Shown: one piece after another, positions 4,525-44,400 of the stretch
Layout: each line of letters begins with the position of its first letter
Numbering within the stretch: position 1 is the stretch's first letter
Source: an uncultured Candidatus Saccharibacteria bacterium
GTDB taxonomy: Bacteria > Patescibacteriota > Minisyncoccia > Phycocordibacterales > XYD1-FULL-46-19
Length of the DNA: 64,000 bases
Reading direction: 5' to 3'
Assembly: GCA_964639285.1 (NCBI GenBank)
Contig: CAZXCI010000003.1
Location: forward strand, 31,187 to 95,186
The notes under the pieces: generated by a model
The model's database searches: none
What the model was told of the DNA's origin: nothing
Seen by the model: only the letters and a program-made list of their open reading frames with translations
Made by a program: the position numbers and the translations under genes

Positions 4525-4597
4525 CCGCCCATAGCTCAGTTGGTAGAGCAGCTCCCTTTTAAGGAGACGGTCCAAGGTTCGAATCCTTGTGGGCGGA
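4525..4597 (+). tRNA. tRNA-Lys (anticodon TTT), no encoded CCA
   Basis: Acceptor CCGCCCA/TGGGCGG, D-arm GCTC-AGTTGGTAG-AGC, anticodon loop CTTTTAA, T-arm CAAGG-TTCGAAT-CCTTG. Confidence 0.8.
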
Positions 4598-4599
4598 CA

Positions 4600-5334
4600 C
4601 TAAACACTCAGCAATATCTTCTCCAAACCAAACTCAAATTCGTCGGTGCCGAGATAAGTCATGTGGTAGAGATCAAGAAAGCTAGCGGAGAGTCTTTTAA
4701 GTTCTTCATTAGAGAAAGTTTTGGCTGCCGCTTTAGCCTTAGCTAGCGGATAGGGCTTCAACTTAAGCTTATTGGAATCTTTGGTATTCTTAACTAAGAG
4801 CAAATTATTAGTTGACCAAATCAACTTCCACAATATTTCTTCAGCTGAGATCCCATGAATTAAGGCTTCTTGATAGAGAACCCAAGCTCGATTCTTGTTC
4901 TTCGCGGCAAAAGCGTCGGTAATAGAGAAAATATTAAAGGCCCCATGCTTAGATAACTCTCCTGCTTTCTTCTCAAATTTCTGAGCCTTGCTAGCCAACT
5001 TCTCAAGTTCAGCCAAAACCTTCGCGTCCGTGTTATTCTCCAAGAGGAGAAAGACGTTATCTGATCGAACCATGAGAGAAAGTCGGCCCCTAGCCTTTCT
5101 CAAGATCTCCTCATTGCCTTTGGTACTCGAAAATAAATTATCACAACCAACAATAAATTTTTGATAAAAGAGACCCTGGCCCTTTGTTAACTCCTCAAGC
5201 GTCTGACTGGCAAAATTCTCACTCGTTAATTTGAAGAGGCTAGCTTCAGGATTCTTGGCCAACAACGAACTACTAAGCGCCCGATATTTATCACGACTTC
5301 TTAACTCATCATTACCATAAATTAAAATTATCAT
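4600..5334 (-). CDS. holA: DNA polymerase III delta subunit (HolA)-like, short form
   Basis: N-terminal LIYGNDELRSRDKY (compare LLLGNDPLL of HolA) and C-terminal FNIFSITDAFAAKNKNRAWVLYQEAL...ILWKL block matching the delta C-terminal domain pattern. Confidence 0.5.
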   Translation of the reverse strand: MIILIYGNDELRSRDKYRALSSSLLAKNPEASLFKLTSENFASQTLEELTKGQGLFYQKFIVGCDNLFSSTKGNEEILRKARGRLSLMVRSDNVFLLLENNTDAKVLAELEKLASKAQKFEKKAGELSKHGAFNIFSITDAFAAKNKNRAWVLYQEALIHGISAEEILWKLIWSTNNLLLVKNTKDSNKLKLKPYPLAKAKAAAKTFSNEELKRLSASFLDLYHMTYLGTDEFEFGLEKILLSV

Positions 5335-19450: not shown

Positions 19451-20554
19451 TTATTTATTAATAGGCATCACGAGATAAAGAAAGTTTTCATCCCCTACTC
19501 CAGATATTAAGAGAGGTTGGTTTTTATCAGTAAAACGAAGATAAACATCATCGGCGCCTATTGACGGCAAACAATCTAAAAGATATTTGGCATTAAAACT
19601 GCTTTCCAAATTATCTCCTTTTACTTTTGTAATTAAAGAAAAGTTATTTTCCCCAATATCTTGATTGCGAGAACTTATCTCTAAAGTGTTTGTTTTATTA
19701 TCAATTTTAAAGTCAATCTGATTGAATTTATCAGTAAAAATGTTTGATAATTTGAGGATACTAGACAACTCATCTTTTTTAACATTAAGTTCTGTTTTGA
19801 ATTTTGTTGGAATAATTTGTTGATAATCAGGATAAGAACCATCAATAATTCTAAGAGTTAAATATAGGTTGTCGGTTTGAATCGCCAGCTGATTCTTATT
19901 AAAACTAACAATAAGGTTTGCTTGGAGCCCATCAATTGTCTTTATTATCTCAGTGACACTCTTAAGAGGAATAATTAGAGCAATTTGTTCTTTAAATTTA
20001 TGGTCAACAACTATCTTTTTTTCGACTAGACGGAAAGAGTCGGTTGCAACAAAAAATAATTCATTTCCTTTATTGTAAACATAAACACTAGATATTTCAG
20101 GTTTAATATCCGATAAGGCAGCAGCAAAGATAACCGACTTTAACCCAGCGGTTAAGGTGGTTGAATCAATAGTAAAACCATTTTCTTGATTAATTTTAGG
20201 AATAATAGGAAAATCATCAGTATTTAAACCTTTTATTAAAGTATTAGTATTTTCTGTTGTTATTTTAAGATTATCGCTTATTGTCGTTAATTCAACTTTT
20301 ATCTCTTTATTTAAATTGGAGAGAAAATTATTTAAAACAGTGGCACTAACGGTAATTGATCCAACTTCTTGAATCTTGGCCGGAATTTCTATTTCTACCC
20401 CAACCTCTAAATTTGTTGATTTTATAATTAAAGCCTTATTGCTCGTCTCAAGGAGAATTGATCCTAAAATTGGTAAAGTTAAATTACGACCAGCAACTCG
20501 CTCAGCAATTGCTACTCCGTCCTTTAATTTATCTTTTACACATTCAATTTTCAT
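19451..20554 (-). CDS. dnaN: DNA polymerase III beta sliding clamp
   Basis: MKIECVKDKL...LTLPILGSILLE N-terminus, three-domain length (367 aa), dnaA-dnaN synteny. Confidence 0.9.
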   Translation of the reverse strand: MKIECVKDKLKDGVAIAERVAGRNLTLPILGSILLETSNKALIIKSTNLEVGVEIEIPAKIQEVGSITVSATVLNNFLSNLNKEIKVELTTISDNLKITTENTNTLIKGLNTDDFPIIPKINQENGFTIDSTTLTAGLKSVIFAAALSDIKPEISSVYVYNKGNELFFVATDSFRLVEKKIVVDHKFKEQIALIIPLKSVTEIIKTIDGLQANLIVSFNKNQLAIQTDNLYLTLRIIDGSYPDYQQIIPTKFKTELNVKKDELSSILKLSNIFTDKFNQIDFKIDNKTNTLEISSRNQDIGENNFSLITKVKGDNLESSFNAKYLLDCLPSIGADDVYLRFTDKNQPLLISGVGDENFLYLVMPINK

Positions 20555-20757
20555 ATTTTTTATTTTTAAGACTTATTAATATTAAACTTGTGGATATGTT
20601 GATAAGTTTAATATATCTTTATAGATAAAGAGTTTTTGTTTTTTTAAATTACCCATTCCTGTTAATTAAAGTGTTTATAAAAATCTTTTTTAAAATATCA
20701 ATTCAACTCTTGTTTTTTATCCCCAATTAATACTAATCTTTATCCCAATTTTTTCCA
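20555..20757. promoter_or_regulatory. AT-rich dnaA-dnaN intergenic region with DnaA-box-like 9-mers (TGTGGATAT at 20589; TTATCCCCA at 20717; TTATCCCAA at 20740): candidate oriC / DNA-unwinding element
   Basis: DnaA box consensus TTATCCACA with one or two mismatches, both orientations, in a roughly 75 percent AT spacer. Confidence 0.45.
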
Positions 20758-22152
20758 CTAGCTATTAACATAAAGTAAAGACCTGATCTGTTCTACTTCT
20801 TGATTTAACAGAGAATCTGTTTTTATATCTTTTTTTATTTTCTCATAAGCGTGGATAACGGTTGTGTGATCTCTTCCTCCCAATTTTTGCCCAATATAAG
20901 GATAAGATGTATTAAAATCCTCTCTTAGTATATACATAATAACCTGTCTTGGTTTTACAATCTCTTTACGGCGGGTCTTTTCATAAAGAACTTTTTCTTC
21001 AATATTATAATAATTGGCAACAACACCGAGAACGTCCTTAATTGAGAGGGTTTTTTGTGGCTTGGTGTTGTTTTTTATTATCCCTTTAACCTCTTGAAGA
21101 GTGACATCTCTTTTTTTTGCTTGAGCTTGGCAAATAATAGAATTAAGGGCCCCTTCCAACTCTCGAATACTATCTTGGACAACAGAGGCAATGTATTCAA
21201 TAATTTCTGGAGCTAGAGAGAGATTGTTTACCTTAATTTTATTATTTAAAATAGCTAATCGAGACTCATAATCTGGTTTGGCAACATCAATAATTGTTCC
21301 TCCTTCAAAACGAGATCTTAAACGTTCTTCAAGACTTGGTATATACTTAGGCGGTTTGTCAGAAGAAAAAATAATTTGTTTATTATTTTCATAATAATGA
21401 TTAAAAAGATGAAAAAGCTCTTCCTGAGAATGTTCTTTATTGGAAAAAAATTGAACATCGTCAATGATTAGGAGGTCATATTTACGATAACGCTCTTTGA
21501 AAGCGTTACCTTTATTGTTTTGGATATTATTAATAAGTTCAACTATAAAATTCTCTGAGGTTATATAATAAACCGTCTTGTTTGGGTAGTTCTTCTTGAG
21601 CTGGTTGCCAATAGCCTGAAGAAGATGTGTTTTACCTAATCCTGTACCCCCATAAATAAAGAGTGGATTATGAATTGTTCCAGGATTTTTAACAATCGCC
21701 TGGCTAGCAGCATAGGCGACATCGTTAAAAGAGCCAACTGTGAAGGTTTCAAAAGTGTATTTAGGGTTAAGATTACTCTCTTTGTTGATATAGAGGTCTT
21801 TCAAGCCGAGATCGTTCACAATTAAGGCTGTTTTGTCCCCCTGAGAGCCCTTGTTCTTCTGTGAACTGTCTTTTTCATCATTTCGACTGATGATGTACTC
21901 TATTGAGCGTACCCCCTCCTCTATCTCGCGCAGGGCCTTAAGGATGAATTTGTGGTACTTAGTCATAAGCCAATCTCGAACAAAGGCGTTTGGGACTCCA
22001 ATATAGATGACACCCTCGTCATTCTTAACAATATGGGTGTTTTTAAACCAAGTACCAAAATTGGCTTTAGAGAGAGATAATTCTATCTCGTTGAGGGCGC
22101 TATCCCAGAGCTTCTTGTTATCTAAAATACTCTCCATAGCAATTGTCCCCAT
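20758..22152 (-). CDS. dnaA: Chromosomal replication initiator protein DnaA
   Basis: AAA+ Walker A GGTGLGKTHLL, sensor motifs, C-terminal DNA-binding helix YIGQKLGGRDHTTVIHA. Confidence 0.9.
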   Translation of the reverse strand: MGTIAMESILDNKKLWDSALNEIELSLSKANFGTWFKNTHIVKNDEGVIYIGVPNAFVRDWLMTKYHKFILKALREIEEGVRSIEYIISRNDEKDSSQKNKGSQGDKTALIVNDLGLKDLYINKESNLNPKYTFETFTVGSFNDVAYAASQAIVKNPGTIHNPLFIYGGTGLGKTHLLQAIGNQLKKNYPNKTVYYITSENFIVELINNIQNNKGNAFKERYRKYDLLIIDDVQFFSNKEHSQEELFHLFNHYYENNKQIIFSSDKPPKYIPSLEERLRSRFEGGTIIDVAKPDYESRLAILNNKIKVNNLSLAPEIIEYIASVVQDSIRELEGALNSIICQAQAKKRDVTLQEVKGIIKNNTKPQKTLSIKDVLGVVANYYNIEEKVLYEKTRRKEIVKPRQVIMYILREDFNTSYPYIGQKLGGRDHTTVIHAYEKIKKDIKTDSLLNQEVEQIRSLLYVNS

Positions 22153-22161
22153 TATAGTGAT

Positions 22162-22222
22162 TGTGGATAAACAAGCAAACTTCCCTAATTTGTTTATATA
22201 TGGTGGATTACTTGTGGATTAT
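22162..22222. promoter_or_regulatory. Cluster of three co-oriented DnaA boxes upstream of dnaA (TGTGGATAA perfect at 22162-22170; TGGTGGATTA; TGTGGATTA at 22214-22222): oriC / dnaA autoregulation region
   Basis: Exact reverse complement of TTATCCACA plus two one-to-two-mismatch copies within 60 bp. Confidence 0.55.
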
Positions 22223-22230
22223 TTCAAACC

Positions 22231-22258
22231 TTGCCAAAAGACAAATTTTTGTTATACT
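22231..22258 (+). promoter_or_regulatory. Sigma70-like promoter for rpmH-rnpA-yidC (TTGCCA - 16 nt - TATACT); the predicted start site lies only 1-3 nt before the rpmH ATG (leaderless)
   Basis: Hexamers seen directly; ATG at 22267. Confidence 0.4.
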
Positions 22259-22266
22259 AGCGGGGT

Positions 22267-22407
22267 ATGTCATTTACCTACAAGCCATCTAAGAAGAAAA
22301 GAGCTACCACTCACGGCTTTTTGTCTAGAACCAAAACTGCTAATGGTAAAAAAGTTTTAGCTCGTCGCCGTACTAAGGGACGAAGCAGTTTGTCTGTTTC
22401 TAAATAA
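22267..22407 (+). CDS. rpmH: 50S ribosomal protein L34
   Basis: [46 protein letters not shown], a classic L34 sequence; below the ORF-track length cutoff. Confidence 0.85.
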
Positions 22408-22758
22408 ATGCTTCCTAAAAACAGGAGAATATCCACCTCTCTTCTTCTCCCGGCGCTTAAAAGAAGCACTGTTTATTCTTCTGAAAATCTAACCCTCAGA
22501 ATTCATCGTCTATCCCCTAATGAACAAACTAAACCCGCTAAAATTGCCATTATCGTCCCCCGTAAGGTCAATAAATTAGCTGTTGATCGTCATCTAAGTA
22601 AAAGAAAAATTAGCGCTTTTTTAGAAAAAGAATTAAAATTAATTAAGCCTGGCCAATATCTTATTTTTCAAATTAAGAAAGATATTGCCAAGCTCCCTTC
22701 TTTAGTGTTAGCACAAGAGGTTAAGGGTCTTCTTTTAAATCATGATTGCCTTTTTTAA
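22408..22758 (+). CDS. rnpA: Ribonuclease P protein component
   Basis: Immediately follows rpmH (stop/start abutting); basic 116-aa protein with an RnpA-like LLKRSTVYSSENLTLRI region. Confidence 0.75.
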   Translation: MLPKNRRISTSLLLPALKRSTVYSSENLTLRIHRLSPNEQTKPAKIAIIVPRKVNKLAVDRHLSKRKISAFLEKELKLIKPGQYLIFQIKKDIAKLPSLVLAQEVKGLLLNHDCLF

Positions 22759-23488
22759 AGTTATCCTCTTTATTCCCCTATATAACCTCCTTGTTTTTAT
22801 TACCTCGGTTATTCCTGGTGGAGATTTGGGCTTAGCAATAATTATTCTAACGCTTTTGGTGAAACTGCTTATTTTTCCTCTCTATACCAAGTCTGTCAGA
22901 ACTCAAATCAAATTAAAATCGGTAGAAGCGAAACTAAAAGAAATCAAAGAGAAATATAAAGACAATCTCTCCGAACAGTCTCGTCAAACAATGGAACTTT
23001 ATCGACAAGAAAGGATTAATCCTTTCTCAACAATTATTGTTCTTTTTATCCAAATCCCAATCATTATCTCTCTTTTTTATGTCTTTAGAGATAGCTTTAC
23101 TATCCACACTGAGATTCTTTATTCTTTTATCACCGCTCCTCTTCAGATCAACACCAATTTCTTGGGTTGGTTCGACTTGACGGCGAGTAGGAACATTATT
23201 CTGGCGGCCTTAACCGGAGTCACTCAATATCTTCAGGTTCGTTATTCTCTTCCCCCTCCCCCCATTAAAGATAAAAAAGTTGGTGAATCTTTCAAAGAAG
23301 ACTTGATGCGTAGTATGGACCTTCAGATGCGTTACTTTATGCCCCTAATAACTGTCTTTATTGCCTTCACTCTTCCCTCGGCTATTGCCCTCTACTGGAT
23401 AACAAGCAATAGCTTCTCAGCCATCTATGAGTTAATGGTGATTAAGAAAATAAAGAAGGAAGCCGAGCTTTCTAAAGTGGCAAACTAA
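22742..23488 (+). CDS. yidC: Membrane protein insertase YidC (short Oxa1-type)
   Basis: Five-TM 248-aa protein, conserved YidC core (PLYTKSVRTQIKLK..., LIFPLY), rpmH-rnpA-yidC synteny. Confidence 0.8.
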   Translation: MIAFFKVILFIPLYNLLVFITSVIPGGDLGLAIIILTLLVKLLIFPLYTKSVRTQIKLKSVEAKLKEIKEKYKDNLSEQSRQTMELYRQERINPFSTIIVLFIQIPIIISLFYVFRDSFTIHTEILYSFITAPLQINTNFLGWFDLTASRNIILAALTGVTQYLQVRYSLPPPPIKDKKVGESFKEDLMRSMDLQMRYFMPLITVFIAFTLPSAIALYWITSNSFSAIYELMVIKKIKKEAELSKVAN

Positions 23489-26581: not shown

Positions 26582-28414
26582 CTAATTAGGTGTCGCCCCG
26601 GCTTGTCTAGATGTTTCGAAGTCAGCTTTAGCTTTCTTAATCGCTAAAATTTGTGACGGATCAGAAGTAATAATTTGCTCTTCAGTGTAAGAGGCGATAA
26701 CTTTGATTTCTACTCGCTTGAGACCAGCAATGAAGATGCCGTGACCGATGGGGGCCTCAAGTAAGAAGTATTTCTCTTCCTCGGTGAGGTTAAAAGTTTT
26801 TTGGACAAGATCAATAGACGCAGAAGATTGTTTGAGGAGTATTTGGATAGAACCGTTGGTGATAATTGGCCCACCATACTCAGACTTTAGGAAGTCATCA
26901 ACATCCTGGGTAATTGTGGCAACCCCGAGATAATATTTGCGACCTCTTTTTACCAAAGAATACAGGAAGGAGGCGGCATCTTTGGACTTCATCATAACCC
27001 AAGCCTCATCAACAACGAAGAGGCGTTTCTTAAGATTACGACGAATAGCATTCCAGATGTGGTGAGTAATGATATACATGGCAACAGCCTTTAATTCCTC
27101 CTCCATGTCTCGAATGGAGAAGACGACGAATTTCTTGTTGATGTCAACGTTCGTTGGCTTGTTAAGGAAGCCAGCCCAAGTTCCTTGGGTGTATTTAAGG
27201 AGGCGTTGGGCCAAAGACTCCCCTCCTTCCATCCCCGCTAGGACTAATTCTAGGTCAGAGAGAAGTGGGGCTGGTTTATTAGTGAAATCGGAGTCAGGGG
27301 TAATATCTTTAAGGGCATAAGTTTCAGAAATAGCGTTGTCGAGGATAGAATCTTCCTCTGGGGTAAGTCCGCCGAGCATAATGCGGAAGAGCCCTACGAG
27401 GTTGATGATGTTTGAGCGAAGAACGTCTGATGGCGCCTCATCTTCACGAGGAAAAGGTAGGTCAAAGGGATTAAGGTGGTGTTCGGAAGTTAGTGAGATA
27501 TTGAAGTAACGGCCGCCAACCGCTTCAGCCAAGAACTCGTATTCCCTCTCTGGGTCGATGACGAGAACATCGGTGTCAAACATGAGGCTACGGAGAATCT
27601 CCAGCTTGGTCGTAAAAGATTTTCCTGAACCAGATTTAGCAAAGATAACTGAGTTGTAGTTCTCTAGGGAAAAACGGTCGAAGATAATAAGGGAGGAGTT
27701 ATGAAGGTTTTGTCCATAGAGGATACCTTTATTAGATGTTAAGTCAAAAGAAACAAAGGGAAAGATGCTTGAGAGGGGGGAAGAATTTAACTTAGAGTTA
27801 ACCCCTAAGTAGTCAGTGGCAAAGGGCACTACACTCTTGAAGCCTTCATCTTGCTGGAAGAGAGCCGTCTTGAGATAAATGAGGCGGGAGTCAAGAATTG
27901 ACTTAACCTCATTTTCTACATGTTCAAGCTCATCTTCGTTGTCGGCGTAGATGGTAAGGTAGAGACCGACGTTAAATATCTTCTCAGTAGCTTGCTGTAA
28001 TTGGTCACGAAGGTTCTCGATATCAGCCTGGGCGGTATCGAGTTGGGGGTCACGAACCATTCCCTTCTGCTCTCGGACCATTATCTGACTCTCTACCTCG
28101 GCAATTTTTTTCTGCAGGGCGCGAAGGGCAGTAGTGGTATCTAATGGATGAATGAAAATAGAGATATCGAAGACTTTATCTAAATTTACAATCGGAGAAA
28201 ACCATTCCTCAGGCAAGAAGCGGGGGTAGGAAATGACGAAGAGGGTTCGAGCGACCTTCTCGCCGAGATTGAGGTTCTTGGGGGTAATACGAAGAGCAGA
28301 AGGGGCAATAATATCCCGCAGTTCAAGCTCCCCCATCTGGTAGATATCTTGAGGGAAAATAGGAATAAGGTTTTCCTGTTTCTTGTTTGATTTGCCTAAA
28401 AAGGGTATCTTCAT
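26582..28414 (-). CDS. VirB4/TrbE/TraC-family conjugal-transfer ATPase, C-terminal two thirds (contains Walker A and B)
   Basis: Walker A FAKSGSGKSFTTK, Walker B LFVVDEAW, AAA-like (DUF87) architecture; the N-terminal region resembles the start of the ATPase part of Gram-positive ConE/TrsE-type VirB4. Confidence 0.75.
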   Translation of the reverse strand: MKIPFLGKSNKKQENLIPIFPQDIYQMGELELRDIIAPSALRITPKNLNLGEKVARTLFVISYPRFLPEEWFSPIVNLDKVFDISIFIHPLDTTTALRALQKKIAEVESQIMVREQKGMVRDPQLDTAQADIENLRDQLQQATEKIFNVGLYLTIYADNEDELEHVENEVKSILDSRLIYLKTALFQQDEGFKSVVPFATDYLGVNSKLNSSPLSSIFPFVSFDLTSNKGILYGQNLHNSSLIIFDRFSLENYNSVIFAKSGSGKSFTTKLEILRSLMFDTDVLVIDPEREYEFLAEAVGGRYFNISLTSEHHLNPFDLPFPREDEAPSDVLRSNIINLVGLFRIMLGGLTPEEDSILDNAISETYALKDITPDSDFTNKPAPLLSDLELVLAGMEGGESLAQRLLKYTQGTWAGFLNKPTNVDINKKFVVFSIRDMEEELKAVAMYIITHHIWNAIRRNLKKRLFVVDEAWVMMKSKDAASFLYSLVKRGRKYYLGVATITQDVDDFLKSEYGGPIITNGSIQILLKQSSASIDLVQKTFNLTEEEKYFLLEAPIGHGIFIAGLKRVEIKVIASYTEEQIITSDPSQILAIKKAKADFETSRQAGATPN

Positions 28415-28417
28415 ATC

Positions 28418-29086
28418 TTATTTTTTTGGTGATTCGTCGATGGTCGGAGTCCCAGATTCTCCGGGGTTAAAAATCTTAAAGTAAATCTCGATTAACTCTT
28501 CAGTCTCTAAGATCTCATTTCTTAGGCCAACACGAGAAAGTCCGCTTCGGATAACATTGACACGTTGGTTGAGCTGGGCAACATTCTCTTCAAAATTGCT
28601 GTTGGCGATTTCTTGACTCGATGATTTATCGTTACGACCCAAAAGACCCGACAAGAATCCCCCTTTTCGGGTGTTTAGTATTGGCGGAGTATAAGGAATG
28701 ACAACAAAGAAATTCTTAGTCATGACGTTATGGGTATCGGTAAAAAATTTGATGAACTCAATGTACTCCTTAATCTGGACCTTCAGAAGCTCGTTTGTTT
28801 GGGCGAGCTTCCTCTCCTCTAAGATATTCAGATATGGTCTGATATCAAGACGTCTCGATTGAATAAAAATCTGGATAGAGAAGTCGATAGAGTTTAGAAA
28901 ATTCTGAAATTCGGCAATAATGGCCAGGCGCTCATCACTTGACTTGAGTCCGAAGTTAACTGAAGAGACCATAACCAAAGAGCGGAGAGAACCATCCTTG
29001 AGAACCGCCACCCCGCTCCTGATCTCTCTGATCGGGACGAAGTCTTGGGTCGTATTAGAAACCTTTATAATATCTTTAAAGTCCAT
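28418..29086 (-). CDS. VirB4-family N-terminal domain encoded as a separate 222-aa ORF (stop TAA directly abuts the ATG of the ATPase ORF)
   Basis: FKDIIKV...VAVLKDGSLRSLVMVSSVNFGLKSSDERLAIIAEFQNFL...IQIFIQSRRLDIRPYL matches the N-terminal pattern of Gram-positive VirB4 homologues (IKDG...ILEV.PINF.L.S..E...II..F). 222 + 610 aa is about a full VirB4. Confidence 0.55.
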   Translation of the reverse strand: MDFKDIIKVSNTTQDFVPIREIRSGVAVLKDGSLRSLVMVSSVNFGLKSSDERLAIIAEFQNFLNSIDFSIQIFIQSRRLDIRPYLNILEERKLAQTNELLKVQIKEYIEFIKFFTDTHNVMTKNFFVVIPYTPPILNTRKGGFLSGLLGRNDKSSSQEIANSNFEENVAQLNQRVNVIRSGLSRVGLRNEILETEELIEIYFKIFNPGESGTPTIDESPKK

Positions 29087-29196
29087 CCCGTTAGAAACAG
29101 ATCGCGATCAAAAAATCGCTCTCTCTTCTTAATTTATTTTTTAATAATATCGGATTCATGTTTTGTTTCAATAAGTTATTTGAGCGATCGCGGTTT
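29087..29196. repeat. Intergenic 110-bp element bounded by a perfect 11-bp inverted repeat (CCGTTAGAAAC ... GTTTCTAACGG) with internal GATCGCGATC palindromes and an AT-rich core carrying a minus-strand promoter-like TTGAAA-16-TATTAT
   Basis: Seen directly; fills the exact gap between the PrgI-like gene stop and the VirB4 N-domain ORF start. Confidence 0.4.
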
Positions 29197-29637
29197 CTAA
29201 CGGGGTCCATTATCTTCTTCTTTTAAATTAGTATTGTCTTTAACATCGAGACTCCAGGAGAGTTCCTTCAATTTACTCTCAGAGAGTCGAGGGAGATTGA
29301 GGTTGGCTGTGGTCTCTCCGGCCGTTTTTGTTGTAGATTTTTGAGTAATGACCTGGCGTTCAGACTTCTTCCATAAATAGAGTTTCTTGGTGGTACTATA
29401 CTTGAAGAAGGATTCAGCTAGAAAAATGAAATCTCGACCGTTGTATTTGTAGAAAGTTAGAGCGGCGGCTAAGCTAAGACAGCCAAAGATGAAAAAAATT
29501 GATATATAGATAGGTAGATAAACGTAGAATATAAAGCTAAGACCAACCCCGCCCGCCATGTAGAGGAATTGTTTGAAGGTAAATGGCCCAAAAACCTTAT
29601 CTTCGACTTCAATAAATTGTGGAACTTGGAATTGCAT
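29197..29637 (-). CDS. PrgI-family / VirB3-like small membrane protein
   Basis: MQFQVPQFIEVEDKVFGPFTFKQFLYMAGGVGLSFIF... N-terminal pattern and two-TM topology typical of PrgI-family proteins that sit immediately upstream of VirB4 in Gram-positive T4SS. Confidence 0.5.
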   Translation of the reverse strand: MQFQVPQFIEVEDKVFGPFTFKQFLYMAGGVGLSFIFYVYLPIYISIFFIFGCLSLAAALTFYKYNGRDFIFLAESFFKYSTTKKLYLWKKSERQVITQKSTTKTAGETTANLNLPRLSESKLKELSWSLDVKDNTNLKEEDNGPR

Positions 29638-30193: not shown

Positions 30194-32713
30194 TTAGAAA
30201 GCTGCTCCTCCTTGACGAGGATCGTTTAGGTATTGATAAGCGTTCTCGATGGTTCGGTCTGTCGGGTGAGGACCTGCACCACGATGGTGTTCGATCGCAG
30301 TTCTGATCGCTTGCCTCTCTGTATGTGGAACACCCATAGTTAAGGCACTTCGCAACTGTTCATTTGTTAGATAGGGGTATATGTCAGCATAAGCACCATT
30401 AAAGAGGTCGGTATTGGTGGCAAATTCGACAAATTCTGGCCCTGCAAGATTTCTTAGGGCATTTATTCTATTTATCTCATTAGGATTAGCAGCTGCCCAT
30501 GCTGGATTAAAGGAAGACATTGGGTGGGCAAGGGGCGTTCTCCCTGGGGTTCCAATATTTAATTCGGCCGTTGCCTGTTCTGTTCTGTTGACTCGACCCC
30601 TTTCTCTTGCCACTTCGCCCCTCGCTGTGGCTGTCGTCCTGGCATTTCTTTCAAAGGCCCCTCTTGCTGTTGCAACGTTAGCTCCTAGTGCCGATGGTAT
30701 TGGTGGTGCGCCGGCTACTCCTGGTGTGGGAGGAGCCATCCTGTTGACAAAAGCTTCAAGGTCCGCCTTTTCTCTGGCATTTAATCCTTCATAGAGATTA
30801 TTGAGCTGAGGTCCATCTAGGGAATTGAGATGGGCTAGTCTTTCGGCATCATTCCCTGGGTCGATTCCTCTCCAAGAGGCGGCGGATGTTTCTCTTGCTG
30901 CTCGTCCGCTTCCACTGGCTAGGAGTCTATTGGCCTCATTTCCTCGCCCTTGAGTTCTTAATTGCTGGACGACAGTGGCCTTGTCCTCTGGTGATAAGCT
31001 ACGGAAATAGGCATCTCTATCATCAGTTGACCTCAAACGTGACATATAAGAGGCTCTTTGGGCCCCAGCTTGTGGACCAGTGAAACCTGCGGCCCTCTGT
31101 TGTTGAGCTCTCTGTCTTTCTTCCACTCTTGTTCTGTAACCACGAGTGCCTGTGCCAAAGCCAGAGTTACCAATAGAACCAAGCGCTCGTCGGGCCCCCA
31201 TTGCTACTCGTCCAGTGATTGGTCTTGCCGACGAGGCCCAGGCCTGCATTCTCTGGCTCGTTGCTAGCCGGTTAGCAAGGTTACCGACGGTGTAACCTCC
31301 GGCTATACCGAGGGCTCCAAAACCGAGTCTCCTGCCCCAACTTCGGGCAGCCCCGGCTCCAGCGGCACCAAGGCTGTTTGCAATTAAGATACAGCCAAAG
31401 AGAAGGCCAACAATCATGAAATTCATAAAGACAAGGATCATTGGCCCCATAGACCCTAAACTGTTGGCGTCCTTGCCCAGTAGTCCTCCGATTCCATCCT
31501 TTAAGAAAATGAAAACTACATAAAGTGGAACGATTATTCCAGGGGCAACGAAGGCTTGATGAAGAAGTTTCTTAAGCCAGGTGTCAAAGTGATGTCTACC
31601 ATTTGGTATGACGTATAAGACAAAAGCAATGGGTGAAATAACATAGAGAAAAATAAGATAAACAGTTCTAATGAGAAACATAATTGACATAGCTATTAGG
31701 ACAAAACAAGAAACCAGAATAATAATAATGTTCCCGAAAGTTTGAATAATTATACCAGCGATACTTAAGCTCCCGATCACTGGGGCGAGAATAATGACTT
31801 CATTTCCATCAGCATCAGTCGCCTTAACCGGGATTGAAGGACCACCAAGAAACTGTTGGCTTAAATTTAGCTTACTAACTAATTGTCCGCCGATGCCAAG
31901 TTTGTTTCCCCCTGTCGCGATACCACCACCCATCTTGACGTAGAATTCATAAGCAACAACATTGGAGGCATCGATAATGATTCTAGTGAAGAAACCGCTG
32001 AAGTTGACAAGGAGAGCAATAATTATAACATTGACGATTAATTTCTTGGGATCACCTATTCCTTGGAGTTCAAAAATTGTCCCGATGGCGATATAGAGTA
32101 AGATGAAAACAAAACAGAGATTCCCGATGTCACGCAATACTGTCCAAGCGTTATCGATGCCGGAGTTTATTAACCAATCCTTTACGCTTAGGATAGAGAC
32201 TTTTATCGAGATATCTAGAATAGTTCCTGCGGCGACTAAGAGACTACCAAAGACCCAAGTTAAAGCATCGCCGATGGCGGCGAGGACTCCCCGGACACAC
32301 CCTCCGATATTTAAGGGGCTACAAGAATCATCTTGGTTTGCTTCAAGGTATTGTCTAGCTGATTCTTCGTCAACAAATTTTCCTCTAAATTCTCCAAATC
32401 CTCCTCCTGATATGAGAGCAGCTTCTCGCATGGCAGCTAAACCCTCTTTTTGGCTTTTCCCTACAGACAGATCGGGGAACCAGGTAAAACCGTAATTATG
32501 AAGGGTTGAAGAGACTCCTGATACAGGGTTCAGTATCATCGCCCCATAATGTAGCCCCATGTCCCAGAAATTACCAACCACTGATGTTATCGGTGCACTA
32601 TAACCTCCACCGATAGGAACGTTCTGGCTTAGGCTTATCAGGGGGAAGACTATTGCTAAGAGCAATACCCCTGAGATAAGAATATTTATTTTTAATTTCT
32701 TTCTTAAGCTCAT
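30194..32713 (-). CDS. VirB6/TrbL-like polytopic membrane protein (839 aa) with a long Ala/Arg/Gly-rich hydrophilic C-terminal tail
   Basis: N-terminal signal/TM, extracytoplasmic segment, at least 6 closely spaced TM helices in the middle third, then a roughly 380-aa low-complexity tail; architecture typical of TrbL/VirB6. Confidence 0.5.
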   Translation of the reverse strand: MSLRKKLKINILISGVLLLAIVFPLISLSQNVPIGGGYSAPITSVVGNFWDMGLHYGAMILNPVSGVSSTLHNYGFTWFPDLSVGKSQKEGLAAMREAALISGGGFGEFRGKFVDEESARQYLEANQDDSCSPLNIGGCVRGVLAAIGDALTWVFGSLLVAAGTILDISIKVSILSVKDWLINSGIDNAWTVLRDIGNLCFVFILLYIAIGTIFELQGIGDPKKLIVNVIIIALLVNFSGFFTRIIIDASNVVAYEFYVKMGGGIATGGNKLGIGGQLVSKLNLSQQFLGGPSIPVKATDADGNEVIILAPVIGSLSIAGIIIQTFGNIIIILVSCFVLIAMSIMFLIRTVYLIFLYVISPIAFVLYVIPNGRHHFDTWLKKLLHQAFVAPGIIVPLYVVFIFLKDGIGGLLGKDANSLGSMGPMILVFMNFMIVGLLFGCILIANSLGAAGAGAARSWGRRLGFGALGIAGGYTVGNLANRLATSQRMQAWASSARPITGRVAMGARRALGSIGNSGFGTGTRGYRTRVEERQRAQQQRAAGFTGPQAGAQRASYMSRLRSTDDRDAYFRSLSPEDKATVVQQLRTQGRGNEANRLLASGSGRAARETSAASWRGIDPGNDAERLAHLNSLDGPQLNNLYEGLNAREKADLEAFVNRMAPPTPGVAGAPPIPSALGANVATARGAFERNARTTATARGEVARERGRVNRTEQATAELNIGTPGRTPLAHPMSSFNPAWAAANPNEINRINALRNLAGPEFVEFATNTDLFNGAYADIYPYLTNEQLRSALTMGVPHTERQAIRTAIEHHRGAGPHPTDRTIENAYQYLNDPRQGGAAF

Positions 32714-35700
32714 ATACTCATTGTCTTCTGGGTTGTCCCTTTGTCATTGGTGCAATCTAATTTATATTCTCTGGCGGTGGTGGAAGCGGTGACAAGGAGG
32801 TTTGCTCGCTTGGTGAGACTATCCCCTTTTTTCTTAATGATCTCTTCGCCGTTGGCCCAATCATTTCCGGCTTTGCAGTCGGTGGCATTGGGTGAAGCCC
32901 AGTAGAGAAGATATTGGCCGTCTCCCTTATCTTTATCAGCAAAGTAGACGAGAGGCTTAATATTCTTATAAGCGTTGGCTAGGAATTCTATGAGTAATTC
33001 TAGTAGATTGAGACTGTCAGATGACGGAGAGTCTGATTCCCCGATTACTAAGTCGAGTAAACCGGTGAAATTTGACCATTCGGTGCCTCCTTCACCCCCA
33101 TCAGTGCCATCACCATCATCGCCTTCACCAGTTCCTCCCTCGGTTCCCCATTCGCTCGTATCGGGAGTATAAGTGCTAGCTTGTTCAATTTGGTCAGGAA
33201 TCCCGTCAGGGCCGACCATGCCCGGGCCAGGGGCCCCACCCCCGTCAGTCGTGGGGGTGAAGTTGTAGAGCTCACTCACGTTCGGCTCATTGCCCACGTT
33301 GATATCACCCATATCTTTGGCTGTCTCATATTGCGTTAGCCTGGTTCCCATTCCTTGAGCAGCTGTTTCTTTGACGATACTAGCAGGAGTTTGGGTTTCC
33401 CACATAATACATGTTTTGATTGAAGAATCTTCTGGGTCAGTAATCCATTTATTGCATTTTCGGACCGGAAGGAATCCTTGGCCAGCGATCATCTCATCTC
33501 GGACATTTGCTTCGGCTAAGGCCTGACTTCTTTTTAGTTGATCATTGGCGATTAGATAGCTACCATAACGGTTGTTTTGCGGTTGGAACATTTTGAGTAG
33601 GGCTGTCCAATATTCTGCGTCTGTGTAATCCTCAGAATCTGAGGCTTCTTCTTCCGCATAACTAGTTTTTATCCCAAAGAGGGAAGACAGTTTGTCTATC
33701 GGATTAGCCAAATAGCCTAAGAAAGGGATGTTTCTCAGTGTGGCAAGAATCGAAGTATTTTTTTCTTGAGCAACTATTTCTTCCGACTGATCACTGGCCT
33801 TGAACCCATTTTCTTCGGCGGAGCTGATTATTTTTATCTCTTTCTCTGTAAGCGTTGGCTGGAAAGGACGGCCAACTGAATCTATCTGCAAGGCATCGGC
33901 GATCTCATCTTTGTACATGTTCTTTGAGTTTCTAATGCGATCAAGGACAATTCTTTTTGCTTCATCTCTTGCCTGAGCGATTAAGACTCCTTCGTTGACG
34001 ACATAGAGAGGAGCACTATTCCCGTTGGAGTCTTGATATCCCTTTTTAATAAGCCCTTCTTCTCCCAACAGCGCCCCCTTATACTGTTCAATCACTGTTG
34101 AGGCGGCTCGTCTTACGGCGGCATCCTCAACCATTTTTTCTTCAAATCTCTGTTGGATACGTTTAACGGCGCGGATATGGGTACAAATTTGAACATTTAA
34201 CTCTCTTATCTCTCTTGTTCTTCTCTCGATACTATTGGTTAGACTCATTAGTTGGCCGTTTTGCTCGACAACCGGGACATAGAGACCACCGGTGACAGTG
34301 TCTGTCACGGTATCGACGACCGTGTCGACAACTCCCCCCTCGTCGAGGATCCCTTCTAGTCCGGGAATGCTGTTTATAATATCGCTAACACCTGGTAATT
34401 CGTCTAAGGCACCAGAGAAGTCATCGATAAGACCATCGACAGATAGTCCGTTGACCATATCACCCAATAAATCTTCTGGTAGGTCAGAGAGGACACTGTC
34501 AACAATTTCGGGGAGGCCGTTGTTTAGAATATTGCCCAAAGCCCCTTCGCCCAAGAGGGAGAAGACGGTCTCACTCACGTCTCCGTCTAAGAAACTCAGG
34601 ACTTGATTGAGCTGGCCACCACCCAACTGGCTGAAGATGTCATTGAGAGAACTCATGTTGAGATTGCCAAGGATAGAGTTAAGGTTACCTTCACTCAAGT
34701 TACCGAAGATGCCGTTGATGGCCCCATCTCCGAGTCGTCCGATAATTCTATCAAGACTCCCTGATGAGATGTTGTCTATGACGTCGTCAAAATCTTCTAG
34801 ATTATAAGTATTGTTGATGAAGTTATTTAGAGAAGTATCGTTCAGGTCATTGAGCAAACTTGTCAGTTGAGAGGAAGAGAATTGAGTGAGGATGGTCTCG
34901 TTTGACTCGTAAGATAGCCGTCCAATAATACCACCAAGATTACTAGAGGGGAGTTCATCAATAACTTCACTTAGATTACTAATGTTTAAGTTTTCGAGAA
35001 CATGATTGAGGCTATCATAAGGGAGTTTGGTGATAATATCTCGAATATTTATTGTGCTCTCTGTTGGAGAGGAGAGTATCCGATTGAATGAGTCATTAAT
35101 TTGCGATTCGTCGAGAGCCAAAAGTATTTCTGATAAATCGGTGGGGGTGGCCTTATCTAAGTCAACCGGTGTTGTCCCAAGGAGAACAGTCCTTACGGGG
35201 TCGGTCTTCTCAGCATGCACAAGGTTATGAAGAGATAAGTTGTCAGAAAGGAAGTTATCAATATAAGTAATTAGTTTGTCCAAAGGCGAATCAATGAGGG
35301 CTGTTTTTCCCCCGCCGACAGTTCCGCTGAGTTTTGCGTGCCAATGATCACCATATTTTGCACCTTTTTCTCGAGTGAAGACGTCTCCGTTATCGAGATA
35401 ATGTGTTTTAAACTTGGTTTTTTTAGATATTGTGGTGCTTACTGTGTGTTTTTCAATATACTCATTGAGTTTTGCGTTGTCGGGACTATAGTCTACGACG
35501 TTAGCACCGGGTTTATGTTCAACATGCCCAGCCTCTGTTCCAGAAGTTATCACTAGGCCACCTCCTATTTCCCTATTTATCTCGGCGGATCGGTCGATTG
35601 AATGTTGGGGTAATCCGCCGACACTGGTACAGCCACCTTTGACCGTGCGGAAGTCTCTTCCTGCACAATCAGCTTTGTTCACGGTTATTCCTTCCGCCGC

Positions 35701-36276
35701 AAGTTTGTCTCTTGTTTCTTGTTCGCCTCCCGCTGGCTCTCCGTAACCGTTCGCTCCTTCTCCGCCTTGCTCGTCTGAGTCAGGATTCTGAACGGGGTCG
35801 CTATCGCTGGGTTGGCCTTGGTCTCCTGCCCCATCCCCTTCCCCAGTTGTGCCATCTCCTGTTCCGCTCCCCGTCCCGGTCGTGCCAGAACTTCCACCGC
35901 TATAACCGCCAGCCTCAGCTTCACAACGGATCTCGTCTTCTTTTTGGAGTTTGGCCAACTCTTCGGCTTCTTTGTCTGTAGTTTTCTTATCTTTCCCTAC
36001 TCTTTCTTCTAGGGAGTCTTCTCCGCTATTGCCACTGGCGCCATTACTGCCACTATCTCCACCGTCGCCTCCACTGTTGATGATGATGTCGGCGACGTCA
36101 TTTATATCAATGTCGCCAACGCTATCACTTCCTCCACCACTGGGGAAACCCGTATCAGGGACAGGAAGGTTAGATATCTGAGCCCCAGTATTTTGGGCGA
36201 TTAAGAAAATAACTAAGGCTGAGAAAATGACCAGAGTTAGTTTCTTGAATATATTTTGTGAGGTTCTCGTGGTCAT
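32710..36276 (-). CDS. Giant secreted/surface protein (about 1190 aa) with acidic Gly/Asp/Ser-rich N- and C-terminal regions and a central array of degenerate Leu/Asn/Ser-rich repeats
   Basis: Signal peptide after the internal Met (MTTRTSQNIFKKLTLVIFSALVIFLIAQNTGAQ); the ORF opens at 36321. Repeats of the form S/N-L-N-x-x-L-x-x-L-x-(I/L)-x-x (LNHVLENLNISNLSEVIDEL, LGGIIGRLSYESNETIL, LDRIIGRLGDGAINGIFGNLSEGNLNSILGNLNMSSLNDIFSQLGGGQLNQVLSFL). 4-nt overlap with the VirB6-like gene. Confidence 0.6.
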   Translation of the reverse strand: MTTRTSQNIFKKLTLVIFSALVIFLIAQNTGAQISNLPVPDTGFPSGGGSDSVGDIDINDVADIIINSGGDGGDSGSNGASGNSGEDSLEERVGKDKKTTDKEAEELAKLQKEDEIRCEAEAGGYSGGSSGTTGTGSGTGDGTTGEGDGAGDQGQPSDSDPVQNPDSDEQGGEGANGYGEPAGGEQETRDKLAAEGITVNKADCAGRDFRTVKGGCTSVGGLPQHSIDRSAEINREIGGGLVITSGTEAGHVEHKPGANVVDYSPDNAKLNEYIEKHTVSTTISKKTKFKTHYLDNGDVFTREKGAKYGDHWHAKLSGTVGGGKTALIDSPLDKLITYIDNFLSDNLSLHNLVHAEKTDPVRTVLLGTTPVDLDKATPTDLSEILLALDESQINDSFNRILSSPTESTINIRDIITKLPYDSLNHVLENLNISNLSEVIDELPSSNLGGIIGRLSYESNETILTQFSSSQLTSLLNDLNDTSLNNFINNTYNLEDFDDVIDNISSGSLDRIIGRLGDGAINGIFGNLSEGNLNSILGNLNMSSLNDIFSQLGGGQLNQVLSFLDGDVSETVFSLLGEGALGNILNNGLPEIVDSVLSDLPEDLLGDMVNGLSVDGLIDDFSGALDELPGVSDIINSIPGLEGILDEGGVVDTVVDTVTDTVTGGLYVPVVEQNGQLMSLTNSIERRTREIRELNVQICTHIRAVKRIQQRFEEKMVEDAAVRRAASTVIEQYKGALLGEEGLIKKGYQDSNGNSAPLYVVNEGVLIAQARDEAKRIVLDRIRNSKNMYKDEIADALQIDSVGRPFQPTLTEKEIKIISSAEENGFKASDQSEEIVAQEKNTSILATLRNIPFLGYLANPIDKLSSLFGIKTSYAEEEASDSEDYTDAEYWTALLKMFQPQNNRYGSYLIANDQLKRSQALAEANVRDEMIAGQGFLPVRKCNKWITDPEDSSIKTCIMWETQTPASIVKETAAQGMGTRLTQYETAKDMGDINVGNEPNVSELYNFTPTTDGGGAPGPGMVGPDGIPDQIEQASTYTPDTSEWGTEGGTGEGDDGDGTDGGEGGTEWSNFTGLLDLVIGESDSPSSDSLNLLELLIEFLANAYKNIKPLVYFADKDKGDGQYLLYWASPNATDCKAGNDWANGEEIIKKKGDSLTKRANLLVTASTTAREYKLDCTNDKGTTQKTMSI

Positions 36277-36280
36277 GTTA

Positions 36281-36973
36281 TTAATTACTGACAAAAATCT
36301 GGATTTTTTCGTTATCAGCAAAAGTTACCTTATTTAAAACAAAGAATTGGTTTAGCGTTTCGATAGATTTGATGAAGTCTGAATAATCATGGTTGAAGGT
36401 CTGGCTATTTTCCAGAGCGAGAGTCGGCTGAGACAAGGCTTGTTCCATATTCTTAAGACGACTGACAAGCAGATTTATTTGACTGACGATTTTGAAATGG
36501 CGGCTGGCCAATTCCTTGGGAACGGGAATTTTTGTCAGACTTAGAGCTACCTGCTCGTGGAGAATCCTAGAGAAGGTTACTGATTTGATGAACGAACCGT
36601 CATTTTTATCAATGGCCGACAGCACGGCCCTGGCCTCACTCTCTCTCCTCCCGCTTAGGGGTTTGAAGGTCTCGGCCAGACGAAGTCCGTAGGTTCGGAA
36701 GTCTTGCGGACTGCTTACTCCAGTAGTCGAACTAGCGATGATCGGTTTCTCGGCCAATTGACTGATCGAGACATTTGTTTTATTGGAGGAGAGTTCCTGT
36801 CGAGAGAGGTCCTCGAGGTTCTTATGTTTTTCTAAAATGTCGCTTAGATAAGCTTGTCGTTTTTTTTCTTCTCTGGATTTTTTTTGATGGCCGACAAACC
36901 ATAAAGAGACAATGGTAAGTACCACTAAAACAATCACTAGCCGTATCACATTTTTGCTTGGTAAATGGGCCAA
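36281..36973 (-). CDS. Membrane-anchored hypothetical protein (230 aa), first gene of the T4SS-like operon
   Basis: N-terminal TM (LVIVLVVLTIVSLWFV), coiled-coil-like remainder. Confidence 0.45.
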   Translation of the reverse strand: MAHLPSKNVIRLVIVLVVLTIVSLWFVGHQKKSREEKKRQAYLSDILEKHKNLEDLSRQELSSNKTNVSISQLAEKPIIASSTTGVSSPQDFRTYGLRLAETFKPLSGRRESEARAVLSAIDKNDGSFIKSVTFSRILHEQVALSLTKIPVPKELASRHFKIVSQINLLVSRLKNMEQALSQPTLALENSQTFNHDYSDFIKSIETLNQFFVLNKVTFADNEKIQIFVSN

Positions 36974-42036: not shown

Positions 42037-44400
42037 ATGCCCCCCCATCTAATTTTAAGTTTTGCAATTATTGTTGTCGTGGTCGCTGTGGCCGGTATTG
42101 TTCTTTGGTATAAGCGGAAGCATCGCCAATGGGAAAGTCTTAACCTCAAGATTCTTTCAATTAAGATTCCTCGGACCGGAAGCGAAGACAAAGTAGATTT
42201 TCTGAAGGAGATAAACTTGACCGAACAACTTTTTAATTCACTCTCTTCAATTAAACAGCCTTTTGTTTTTGAGCTGTCGGTTAAGAATGTGGGCGAAGAA
42301 ATTAATTTTTTCCTCTCGGTCCCTCGCTCGGTTGTTGATTTTGCTAAGCGGGAGATTCAAGGTCTCTTCTTAGACGCCAAGGTTGAGGAAGTTCCCGACT
42401 ACACCATCTTCCAACCGCAAGGGACGGCCGTGGCTGGTTATCTCGCCCTAGACAAAGAATATTTTTTACCGATCGGCACATACCAAGAGGCTCAAGCTGA
42501 TATTTTTGCCCCGATCCTAAGTACTTTATCTCGGGTTAATGAACGTGATGAGGGGGCTTCGGTTCAGATTGTCGTGCGCCCAGCTCCTGAGAAAACGAAA
42601 AAGACTCTCATTTGGGTCGCTGAAAAACTTAAAAGCGGGGCCAAGTTTTCCGATGTTTCTCGTCTTGGAAGCCTAAGTTTAAAAGATGTTAGTCAGGAGT
42701 GGAGTGGTAAACCAAAACCAAAGGAGGGGGAAGCCGGTCCCCCGCCCAAGATCGATGAAGAGATGGTCAAGGCGGTGGGACTTAAGCTGGCCAAACCGCT
42801 CTTCGAGGTTAATGTTCGTCTTGTTACCTCCTCGGTTGATGTTAACCGAGCGGAGGATATGTTTGTGGCTCTCTCGAGTGCTTTTTCTAAATTTTCTTCA
42901 CCGATTCGCAATGGTTTCAAAATTATCAAACCAAAGAAAAATCGTCACCTTGTCTTCAATTATGTCTTCCGTGATTTCAATCGTTATCAGACGATTGTTC
43001 TCAACACTGAAGAATTGGCCAGCATCTTCCACCTTCCAACTCACACTTCTGATGTCCCTAATGTCTCTTGGCTCCGGGCTAAGGAAGCCGCCCCTCCAGA
43101 AGTTATGCCCAAGGAAGGTCTCAAGTTGGGGGATAGTGTCTTCCGGGGAGCAATTAAAGAGGTTCGTTTGACCGACGAGGACCGTCGACGTCATCTCTAT
43201 GTTGTTGGGCAGACTGGTACTGGTAAATCTGTCTTGATTCAAAATTTGGCAATGCAAGACATGATTAATAATAAGGGTCTTTGCGTTATTGACCCTCATG
43301 GCGAGACAATTGAGAAGATCCTGGCTTACGTTCCTAAAGATCGGATTGACGATATTATTGTCTTCGACCCCGGTGATCGGGAGCGACCAATTGGGCTTAA
43401 TATGCTCGAATATGATTTTAACAAACCAGAAGAAAAAACCTTTATCGTTAATGAACTTCTGTCTATTTTTAATCAACTATTTGATAAGCAGGCGCTTGGA
43501 CCAATGTTTGAACGATATATGCGCGGAGCTCTCAATCTCTTAATGGACGATATGGTCAATGAACCGGCGACTTTGGTGGAAGTTCCCCGCGTTTTTACCG
43601 ATGACGAGTTTCGCAAGCGCAAATTAGCCCGCTCGCAAAATCAGCAAATCATCGATTTTTGGACAAAGGAAGTGCCTAAGACCTCGGGTGATCAGAGTCT
43701 TGGTAATTTTGCTCCCTACGTTTCGTCCAAATTTGATAATCTTATTTCCAATTCCTATATTCGCCCCATTATTGGACAACCCAAATCTTCTTTTGACTTC
43801 CGCCAAGCTATGGATGAAGGGAAGATTATTCTGGTAAACTTGTCTAAGGGTAAAGTTGGTGATCTCTCCTCATCTCTATTGGGCATGGTGATCGTAGGTA
43901 AAATTCTTAAAGCTGCTCTTTCTCGCGTTGATATTGCTGATGAGCGTTCTCGTCGGGATTTCTATCTCTATATTGATGAGTTCCAGAACTATACGACCGA
44001 ATCAATTGCTACTATTCTCTCTGAGGCCCGTAAATATCGGCTCAACCTTATTGTCGCCCATCAATTTATTGCTCAACTCAAAGACAACATTCGCGAGGCT
44101 GTATTCGGCAATGTGGGTAACATGATCTCCTTCCGAGTTGGCCCGCCTGACGCTGAGACCCTGGTTAAACATTTCGGTCCGGTCTTCAATGAGAAGGATC
44201 TCATTAGTATTGAGAATCTCAATGCTTTTACCAAGATTCTTGTCAATGGTGAACCGTCCAAACCTTTCAATATGAAGATTACTTGGCCCACGGGTGGCTC
44301 AGCCGTCGTTCGAGATGGTCTTAAGGAGCTCTCTCGCCTTCGTTTCGGCCAAGATCTCGACCAAATTGAGGAAGATATCCTTAAACGCCTGAGAGATTAA
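42037..44400 (+). CDS. Membrane-anchored type IV secretion coupling-protein-like ATPase (VirD4/TraG/TraD- or FtsK-like)
   Basis: N-terminal TM helix; Walker A HLYVVGQTGTGKSVLIQN; Walker B LYIDEFQNY; NLIVAHQ; overall 787-aa architecture typical of T4CPs. Confidence 0.55.
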   Translation: MPPHLILSFAIIVVVVAVAGIVLWYKRKHRQWESLNLKILSIKIPRTGSEDKVDFLKEINLTEQLFNSLSSIKQPFVFELSVKNVGEEINFFLSVPRSVVDFAKREIQGLFLDAKVEEVPDYTIFQPQGTAVAGYLALDKEYFLPIGTYQEAQADIFAPILSTLSRVNERDEGASVQIVVRPAPEKTKKTLIWVAEKLKSGAKFSDVSRLGSLSLKDVSQEWSGKPKPKEGEAGPPPKIDEEMVKAVGLKLAKPLFEVNVRLVTSSVDVNRAEDMFVALSSAFSKFSSPIRNGFKIIKPKKNRHLVFNYVFRDFNRYQTIVLNTEELASIFHLPTHTSDVPNVSWLRAKEAAPPEVMPKEGLKLGDSVFRGAIKEVRLTDEDRRRHLYVVGQTGTGKSVLIQNLAMQDMINNKGLCVIDPHGETIEKILAYVPKDRIDDIIVFDPGDRERPIGLNMLEYDFNKPEEKTFIVNELLSIFNQLFDKQALGPMFERYMRGALNLLMDDMVNEPATLVEVPRVFTDDEFRKRKLARSQNQQIIDFWTKEVPKTSGDQSLGNFAPYVSSKFDNLISNSYIRPIIGQPKSSFDFRQAMDEGKIILVNLSKGKVGDLSSSLLGMVIVGKILKAALSRVDIADERSRRDFYLYIDEFQNYTTESIATILSEARKYRLNLIVAHQFIAQLKDNIREAVFGNVGNMISFRVGPPDAETLVKHFGPVFNEKDLISIENLNAFTKILVNGEPSKPFNMKITWPTGGSAVVRDGLKELSRLRFGQDLDQIEEDILKRLRD

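Follow-up and report, generated by a model that had tools for sequence, protein, structure and literature searches.

The stretch of DNA considered here, the window, comprises 64,000 nucleotides (nt) from a contig of an uncultured Candidatus Saccharibacteria bacterium. The analysed span runs from position 26582 to position 29086, and all the coordinates given are window positions. The span contains, on the minus strand, two abutting open reading frames (ORFs) of 222 and 610 amino acids (aa), which very probably encode, between them, one VirB4, the ATPase of type IV secretion systems (T4SS). They are named here N-part and C-part, respectively, and their predicted products N-chain and C-chain. 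The features of the locus are the following:

28418–29086, minus strand: N-part, the separate gene of a 222-aa TrsD-like protein, predicted to form the first subdomain of the VirB4 N-terminal domain (from ORF reading, NCBIfam, AlphaFold and Foldseek).
28415–28420, minus strand: junction, formed by the TAA stop of N-part (28418–28420) and a GAT codon (28415–28417), followed by the ATG of C-part (28412–28414) (from the sequence).
26582–28414, minus strand: C-part, a predicted 610-aa VirB4 ATPase chain with the second half of the N-terminal domain and the RecA-like ATPase domain (from NCBIfam, Pfam and a profile search of PDB).
27617–27631, minus strand: Walker A motif GSGKS, C-part residues 262–266, codons GGT TCA GGA AAA TCT (read from the sequence).
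26999–27016, minus strand: Walker B motif VVDEAW, C-part residues 467–472, codons GTT GTT GAT GAG GCT TGG (read from the sequence).
29197–29637, minus strand: gene of a PrgI-family (VirB3-like) membrane protein, just upstream of N-part (Pfam PrgI, E 8.3e-10, 39.5 bits versus a cut-off of 27).

The reading of the ORFs confirmed the two genes at the coordinates and on the strand where an earlier reading of the sequence (the original prediction) had placed them. On the coding strand, the junction reads ...AAA AAA TAA GAT ATG AAG..., with N-part and C-part in one frame, and the in-frame translation of 26582–29086 is interrupted by exactly one stop. The earlier description of a TAA abutting the ATG of the second ORF, with no need of a frameshift, was correct, as TAA, GAT and ATG follow one another in a single frame. 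The ATPase motifs Walker A and Walker B were also present as announced, with Walker A about 265 aa from the start of C-part. In the alignment of C-part homologues, the residues G262, G264, K265 and S266 of Walker A, and D469, E470, A471 and W472 of Walker B, are invariant.

C-part scored 376.5 bits with the CD1110-family VirB4 model (NCBIfam NF045971), above its cut-off of 325 (E 2.5e-112), the match covering profile positions 181–732 of 752. The Mbov_0397-family VirB4 profile was matched at positions 292–893 of 894, and the Pfam domains found were P-loop_TraG, AAA_10 and DUF87. A profile of C-part homologues aligned, through residues 227–581, to the VirB4 C-terminal domain 4AG5 with E 2.6e-54, and also to TrwK 446–735. 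Two of the hallmarks of a VirB4, the RecA-like ATPase domain with Walker A and B and the mating-pair-formation gene neighbourhood, are present. The third one, the N-terminal domain in the same polypeptide, is not, as C-part starts at about position 181 of the 752 of NF045971 and the earlier ~180 positions are on the 222-aa gene. C-part is, from its sequence, a VirB4 ATPase without the first ~200 residues, i.e. a split variant like TrsE. It is a predicted ATPase by motifs and profiles, and its ATP hydrolysis and hexamer formation are only predicted.

Concerning N-part, it matched the CD1110-family VirB4 model (NCBIfam) at profile positions 2–115 of 752, VirB4_plasma (Mbov_0397 family) at positions 99–233 of 894 (E 9.5e-12), and the TrsD/TraD family (NCBIfam NF041427) at positions 10–142 of 201 (E 9.2e-8, 32.1 bits versus a cut-off of 200). 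Hence, aligned to profile hidden Markov models, both ORFs matched VirB4 models, at complementary positions: N-part at 2–115 and C-part at 181–732 in the first family, and N-part at 99–233 and C-part at 292–893 in the second. The two thus cover a single VirB4 in collinear order and without overlap. The cut site lies inside the usual VirB4 N-terminal domain, about 40 residues ahead of the conserved YPRF motif of C-part. Furthermore, the Pfam family PF26593 ('TraC-like') is a precomputed match on the identical 222-aa product and on all of its 120 best homologues.

A search of PDB sequences with the N-part profile gave nothing meaningful, the best hit (E 0.5) being an unrelated yeast protein. The AlphaFold model of N-part, made with 106 homologues, was a confident one, with a predicted local distance difference test score (pLDDT) of 88.6 and a predicted template modelling score of 0.78. 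When this model was submitted to Foldseek against PDB, the top 14 matches were all TrwK/VirB4 chains of the R388 T4SS, with probability 1.00 and template modelling (TM) scores of 0.43–0.55 on the query; beyond them, the probability of the matches was below 0.4. The likeness of N-part to solved VirB4 was therefore seen only at fold level. In size and homology (~200–230 aa, related to the VirB4 N-terminus), and in its position between a VirB3-like gene and a shortened VirB4, N-part agrees with TrsD. It seems reasonable to interpret that N-part is a homologue of TrsD/TraD, short of formal membership in NF041427, a model trained on Firmicutes.

The closest known counterpart of this pair is that formed by TrsD and TrsE of the Staphylococcus aureus plasmids pSK41 and pGO1 (pGO1 subclass of MPF_FATA). 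The gene order of pSK41 is trsC (VirB3-like), trsD (227 aa) and trsE (672 aa), which is the same as in the window: a VirB3-like gene, then one of ~220 aa and then a VirB4 of ~610–670 aa. In the alignment of C-part with pSK41 TrsE (25% identity, E 2e-35), residue 1 of one protein faces residue 1 of the other, so that both are cut at one and the same point. The N-part profile was aligned by hhalign with pSK41 TrsD over 168 columns (E 1.8e-5, ~18% identity). A conjugative plasmid of Sulfobacillus, pL15 (194 plus 607 aa), and one of Pontibacillus (274 plus 621 aa, with overlapping genes) have two genes arranged in this way too. The two systems differ in that their sequences are only remotely similar, and in that pSK41 carries a relaxase and transmits itself as a plasmid, while the window system is chromosomal and next to dnaA. 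The plasmid collection also lists pSK41 as conjugative, so a VirB4 made of two chains evidently works there and, by analogy, probably does in the window. The comparison qualifies one statement of the original prediction, that the 222-aa ORF matches the N-terminal region of VirB4 proteins of the ConE/TrsE/PrgJ type. The matches to VirB4 N-terminal profiles bear it out in general, but not for TrsE, since this protein is only the C-terminal half of a split pair, TrsD plus TrsE.

The conservation of the split was considered next in databases and in related genomes. A database protein 100% identical to C-part is present on five contigs. In four independent assemblies, made from different sequencing runs (SRR8925803, SRR8925806, SRR8925766 and SRR8925774), the N-parts and the C-parts were 100% identical, with the same junction of TAA, 3 nt and ATG. 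The homologues of N-part number 7877 or more; their best 120 are all 205–240 aa long with 55–90% identity, and the best 120 homologues of C-part are all 578–625 aa long with 77–100% identity. A search of N-part against 1.84 billion cluster representatives gave 2316 matches, and 149 of the best 150 were 157–443 aa long, well below the size of a fused VirB4. The representatives of the 90%-identity clusters are likewise split. The names borne by the homologues include Paceibacterota, Vogelbacteria, Kaiserbacteria and Nomurabacteria. Some of the TrsD-like homologues of 300–440 aa, such as P0314 (406 aa) and P0340 (443 aa), have C-terminal tails of 100–200 residues, of low complexity and rich in Pro, Gln and Ala.

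Eighty VirB4 loci of distinct species genomes were then fetched with the alignment of C-part homologues, a query that is neutral with respect to split or fused genes. Two of them had no upstream DNA. In the other 78, both parts were found and none was fused; N-part was directly upstream of C-part, on the same strand in 77 of them and inverted in one. Thus the split is conserved in the orthologous loci of related genomes, among which identities were 50–57% for N-part and 69–76% for C-part. At the 77 co-oriented junctions, the start of C-part was in the same frame as the stop of N-part in 15 cases, in frame +1 in 37 and in frame +2 in 25. The N-part stop codons were TAA (55), TAG (14) and TGA (8), and the gaps went from −4 nt (an ATGA overlap) to 481 nt, with 47 of the 77 between −4 and +7 nt. 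One locus (L032) that looked like a fused gene was rejected as such: tblastn had aligned through the stop, which is at position 3471 of that locus, with the ATG at 3480 and a real gap of 6 nt.

Some of these loci display peculiarities of their own. In L005, a gene of 127 aa (2999–3382) lies between the TrsD-like gene and virB4, and in L021 and L052 these two genes are separated by gaps of ~480 nt. In L011, the locus with the inverted gene, the TrsD-like gene (2776–3390, minus strand) adjoins virB4 (3501–5309, plus strand) on its upstream side, as a result of either an inversion or a misassembly.

A fused form does occur in a sister clade. The protein P0330 (797 aa) contains the homology to N-part and to C-part in one chain, and 118 of the best 120 matches found with it were 775–807 aa long, with 59–100% identity and with PF26593 and the ATPase domains together. 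Where names are given, they are Candidatus Colwellbacteria or Patescibacteria. The one-chain form, of ~790 aa in the Colwellbacteria clade, and the two-chain form of the split clade therefore coexist in the phylum. Shorter proteins of this clade are P0409 (600 aa) and P0505 (601 aa). The former could have been a gene split again within the fused clade, but this was rejected, as there is a scaffold gap of Ns in its N-terminal region. P0330, as modelled by AlphaFold, can be superposed on TrwK over its entire length (813 columns, TM score 0.60, E 2.7e-24). At residues ~208–235, which are the equivalent of the window junction, the confidence of the model is lower than in the flanks, which is consistent with a linker. 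Compared to the single-chain VirB4 proteins (TrwK of R388, the CD1110 family of Firmicutes integrative and conjugative elements, and the fused Colwellbacteria proteins), the concatenated window parts have the same domain content and order, with Walker A and B kept; the difference is that those are one polypeptide and the window has two.

As to the direction of the change, the C-part homologues were sampled too closely for rooting a tree of fission versus fusion. Parsimony mildly favours that the split is ancestral, because the outgroups with separate genes (pSK41, pL15 and Pontibacillus) share the cut point. It was also observed that strands and helices succeed one another alike in residues 14–207 and 239–393 of the P0330 model. 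This is a hint of an internal duplication, the natural cut lying between the repeats. The profile-profile comparison of N-part with C-part gave no sequence support for it (probability 0.09), and a duplication is not claimed.

Taken together, we consider it highly probable that the window contains a genuine and ancient two-gene VirB4, made of a 222-aa TrsD-like gene and of a 610-aa gene with the second N-terminal subdomain and the ATPase domain. The original prediction that the two ORFs reconstitute VirB4 is supported by the collinearity of the profiles, by AlphaFold and Foldseek, and by the fused P0330. The same prediction had left open a choice among a lineage-specific genuine split, a natural two-chain VirB4 and a recent nonsense mutation. 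The former two are one and the same reading, strongly supported by the thousands of stand-alone homologues and by the 78 split loci out of 78. Some points weigh against this reading. N-part is far under the curated cut-off of every NCBIfam model that it matched (32 versus 200 bits for TrsD), the hhalign probability of its alignment with TrsD is only 78%, and a local Pfam scan of N-part gave no significant match, perhaps because the PF26593 model was absent from that copy of Pfam. So, the family membership of N-part rests on remote homology, modelled structure and synteny. That the cut falls in a flexible linker is a tentative reading, since the P0330 model is a moderate one (pLDDT 71), and the physical association of the two chains is a prediction.

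The third option, a single virB4 of ~830 aa that recently gained the TAA and became a pseudogene or left a crippled system, is the one suggested by the window at first sight, with two ORFs that share their frame and only TAA GAT between them, and the existence of a fused form in the sister clade is in its favour. It does not survive the comparison with relatives. Not one of the 78 related loci is fused, and the relative frame is a different one at 62 of the 77 co-oriented junctions. With the varied frames, stop codons and spacers (from ATGA overlaps to long ones) and the inserted gene, a single recent nonsense mutation cannot explain the pattern. In addition, the ATG of C-part is its own, at a site homologous to the start of TrsE, and both parts are conserved across related species. 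These junctions and the four identical assemblies refute the nonsense mutation, to which we concede a negligible probability. The same-frame TAA-GAT-ATG that resembles it is, on sequence grounds, a coincidence of the window species, one among many equivalent junctions. That the stop codon was made by a sequencing or assembly error is hardly credible either: nothing specific points to it, beyond the generic concern for a metagenome-derived sequence, while parts and junction are identical in four assemblies obtained independently, each from its own sequencing run, and the 90%-identity representatives are split too. A programmed readthrough or recoding of TAA, which would produce a fused single-chain VirB4 beside the two chains or in place of them, is permitted by the same-frame arrangement of the window species, and a single-chain form is functional in the sister clade. 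Yet, with only 15 of 77 related junctions in frame and all three stop codons in use, no conserved mechanism of this kind is possible. Moreover, the TAA is followed by G, which is not known to be a leaky context in bacteria. We deem the readthrough very improbable.

The most serious rival is that the 222-aa protein shares ancestry with the VirB4 N-terminus but does not complete the ATPase, acting instead as an independent accessory factor (a regulator, a chaperone or a separate subunit of the membrane complex). TrsD itself has never been assigned a function, which tells also against the two-chain reading, and in Gracilibacteria the TrsD homologues are not adjacent to virB4 (PMC12102498). The long low-complexity tails of some homologues (P0314, P0340) and the inverted gene of L011 also speak for this rival. 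On the other hand, the segment missing from C-part is exactly what N-part provides, according to the profile positions, in the fused clade a short linker connects both without a change of order, and the tight, often overlapping junctions suggest co-translation. An accessory factor thus seems quite unlikely, and the two-gene VirB4 is preferred.

If N-part and C-part are the two genes of one VirB4, N-chain and C-chain would come from one operon, presumably by co-transcription, and their translation would probably be coupled, because most junctions are between −4 and +7 nt. The two chains would then assemble non-covalently into a VirB4 protomer equivalent to the single-chain enzyme. In the structures of R388, the membrane-proximal end of TrwK/VirB4 contacts TrwM/VirB3. 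By analogy with them, N-chain would be at the membrane-proximal end, where VirB4 meets VirB3, here PrgI, which is the likely membrane anchor for VirB4, and C-chain would form the ATPase ring. An elaboration of this scheme is that the split goes beyond a neutral fission of the gene and provides these epibionts with a docking subunit under its own control. The amount or the availability of N-chain would then gate how the ATPase is assembled on PrgI/VirB3, turning the essential T4SS on or off, with a stable hairpin at 29087–29204 as a possible control point; we regard it as unlikely.

Regarding that hairpin, a 29-nt inverted repeat, with 76% complementarity and 60 nt between the arms, spans the whole intergenic region between PrgI and N-part (29087–29204, in the minus-strand RNA). 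The computed RNA fold of 29087–29204 has an energy of −32.9 kcal/mol (z = −3.65), and one out of 200 shuffled sequences folded equally well. The 3′ arm ends at the start codon of N-part and could mask the ribosome-binding region.

The two genes belong to a chromosomal cluster in which those of PrgI, N-part, C-part and proteins of 839, 1203 and 147 aa are on one strand. The 839-aa protein is polytopic, with a weak match to a conjugal-transfer family (E 2.5e-4), and the 147-aa protein, downstream, has a weak likeness to T4SS pilins. The 1203-aa ORF (32710–36321, minus strand), within the string of T4SS genes, displays repeats of MgtE_N type (E 8.7e-11), the only kind of domain recognised in it. 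The following genes were located elsewhere in the window:

19451–20554: dnaN (from a domain scan).
20758–22152: dnaA (from a domain scan).
42037–44400, plus strand: homologue of the VirD4/TrwB-like coupling protein, 787 aa (T4SS-DNA_transf, E 5.4e-9), ~13 kb from virB4.
11594–13309, plus strand: PilB/GspE-type ATPase with an MshEN domain (T2SSE, E 6.7e-118).

The genes yidC and rnpA are between the T4SS cluster and dnaA, and yidC, rnpA, dnaA and dnaN are within ~4 kb (19451–23488). With dnaN, dnaA, rnpA and yidC beside the cluster, the secretion genes therefore adjoin the presumed replication origin. The PilB/GspE-type ATPase shows that the window codes for a type IV pilus system as well. The ORFs that were scanned, those of the cluster among them, included no relaxase, the scan of the whole window not being exhaustive.

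This gene content can be compared with that of the T4SS surveyed across Patescibacteria by Quinonero-Coronel et al. 2025 (PMC12102498). In that survey, TrsD is described as remotely homologous to the N-terminus of VirB4 and elsewhere confined to the pGO1 subclass of MPF_FATA, and its homologues are the most abundant T4SS component of Patescibacteria, with 2,272 of them in 2,221 assemblies, 1,664 being associated with VirB4. The systems are often near dnaA, relaxases are mostly absent, and the type IV coupling protein is usually non-adjacent (PMC12102498). The window shares with them the TrsD beside virB4, PrgI/VirB3, a VirB6-like protein, a VirB2-like pilin, the chromosomal location near dnaA and the distant coupling protein. 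Nothing substantive differs, and the window is an ordinary member. Judging from its predicted genes, the cluster fits the chromosomal T4SS of the Patescibacteria clade. In Ca. Southlakia epibionticum, the TrsD homologue beside virB4 is listed as essential, according to the citation of Wang et al. 2023 in PMC12102498, and essentiality and gene content are repeated in a 2025 review (PMC12857230).

Hence, in this group of ultra-small bacteria, a TrsD-like protein plus a short VirB4 is the normal, already published arrangement. That TrsD is a detached VirB4 N-terminus, abundant beside virB4 in Patescibacteria, was published before, and the biology is not new. What is added here is that the split point is that of TrsD/TrsE, that the junction is free in frame and in length, and that the clade of Colwellbacteria type is fused. 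For annotation, this means that an in-frame stop and a 3-nt gap in a virB4 pair are no grounds for calling it a pseudogene, and that the T4SS of the window genome is to be scored as intact. For structural biologists, the family offers a natural experiment, with one chain in the Colwellbacteria-type proteins and TrwK versus two chains, cut at a fixed point, in the window clade and pSK41. This contrast marks a tolerated boundary within the VirB4 N-terminal domain.

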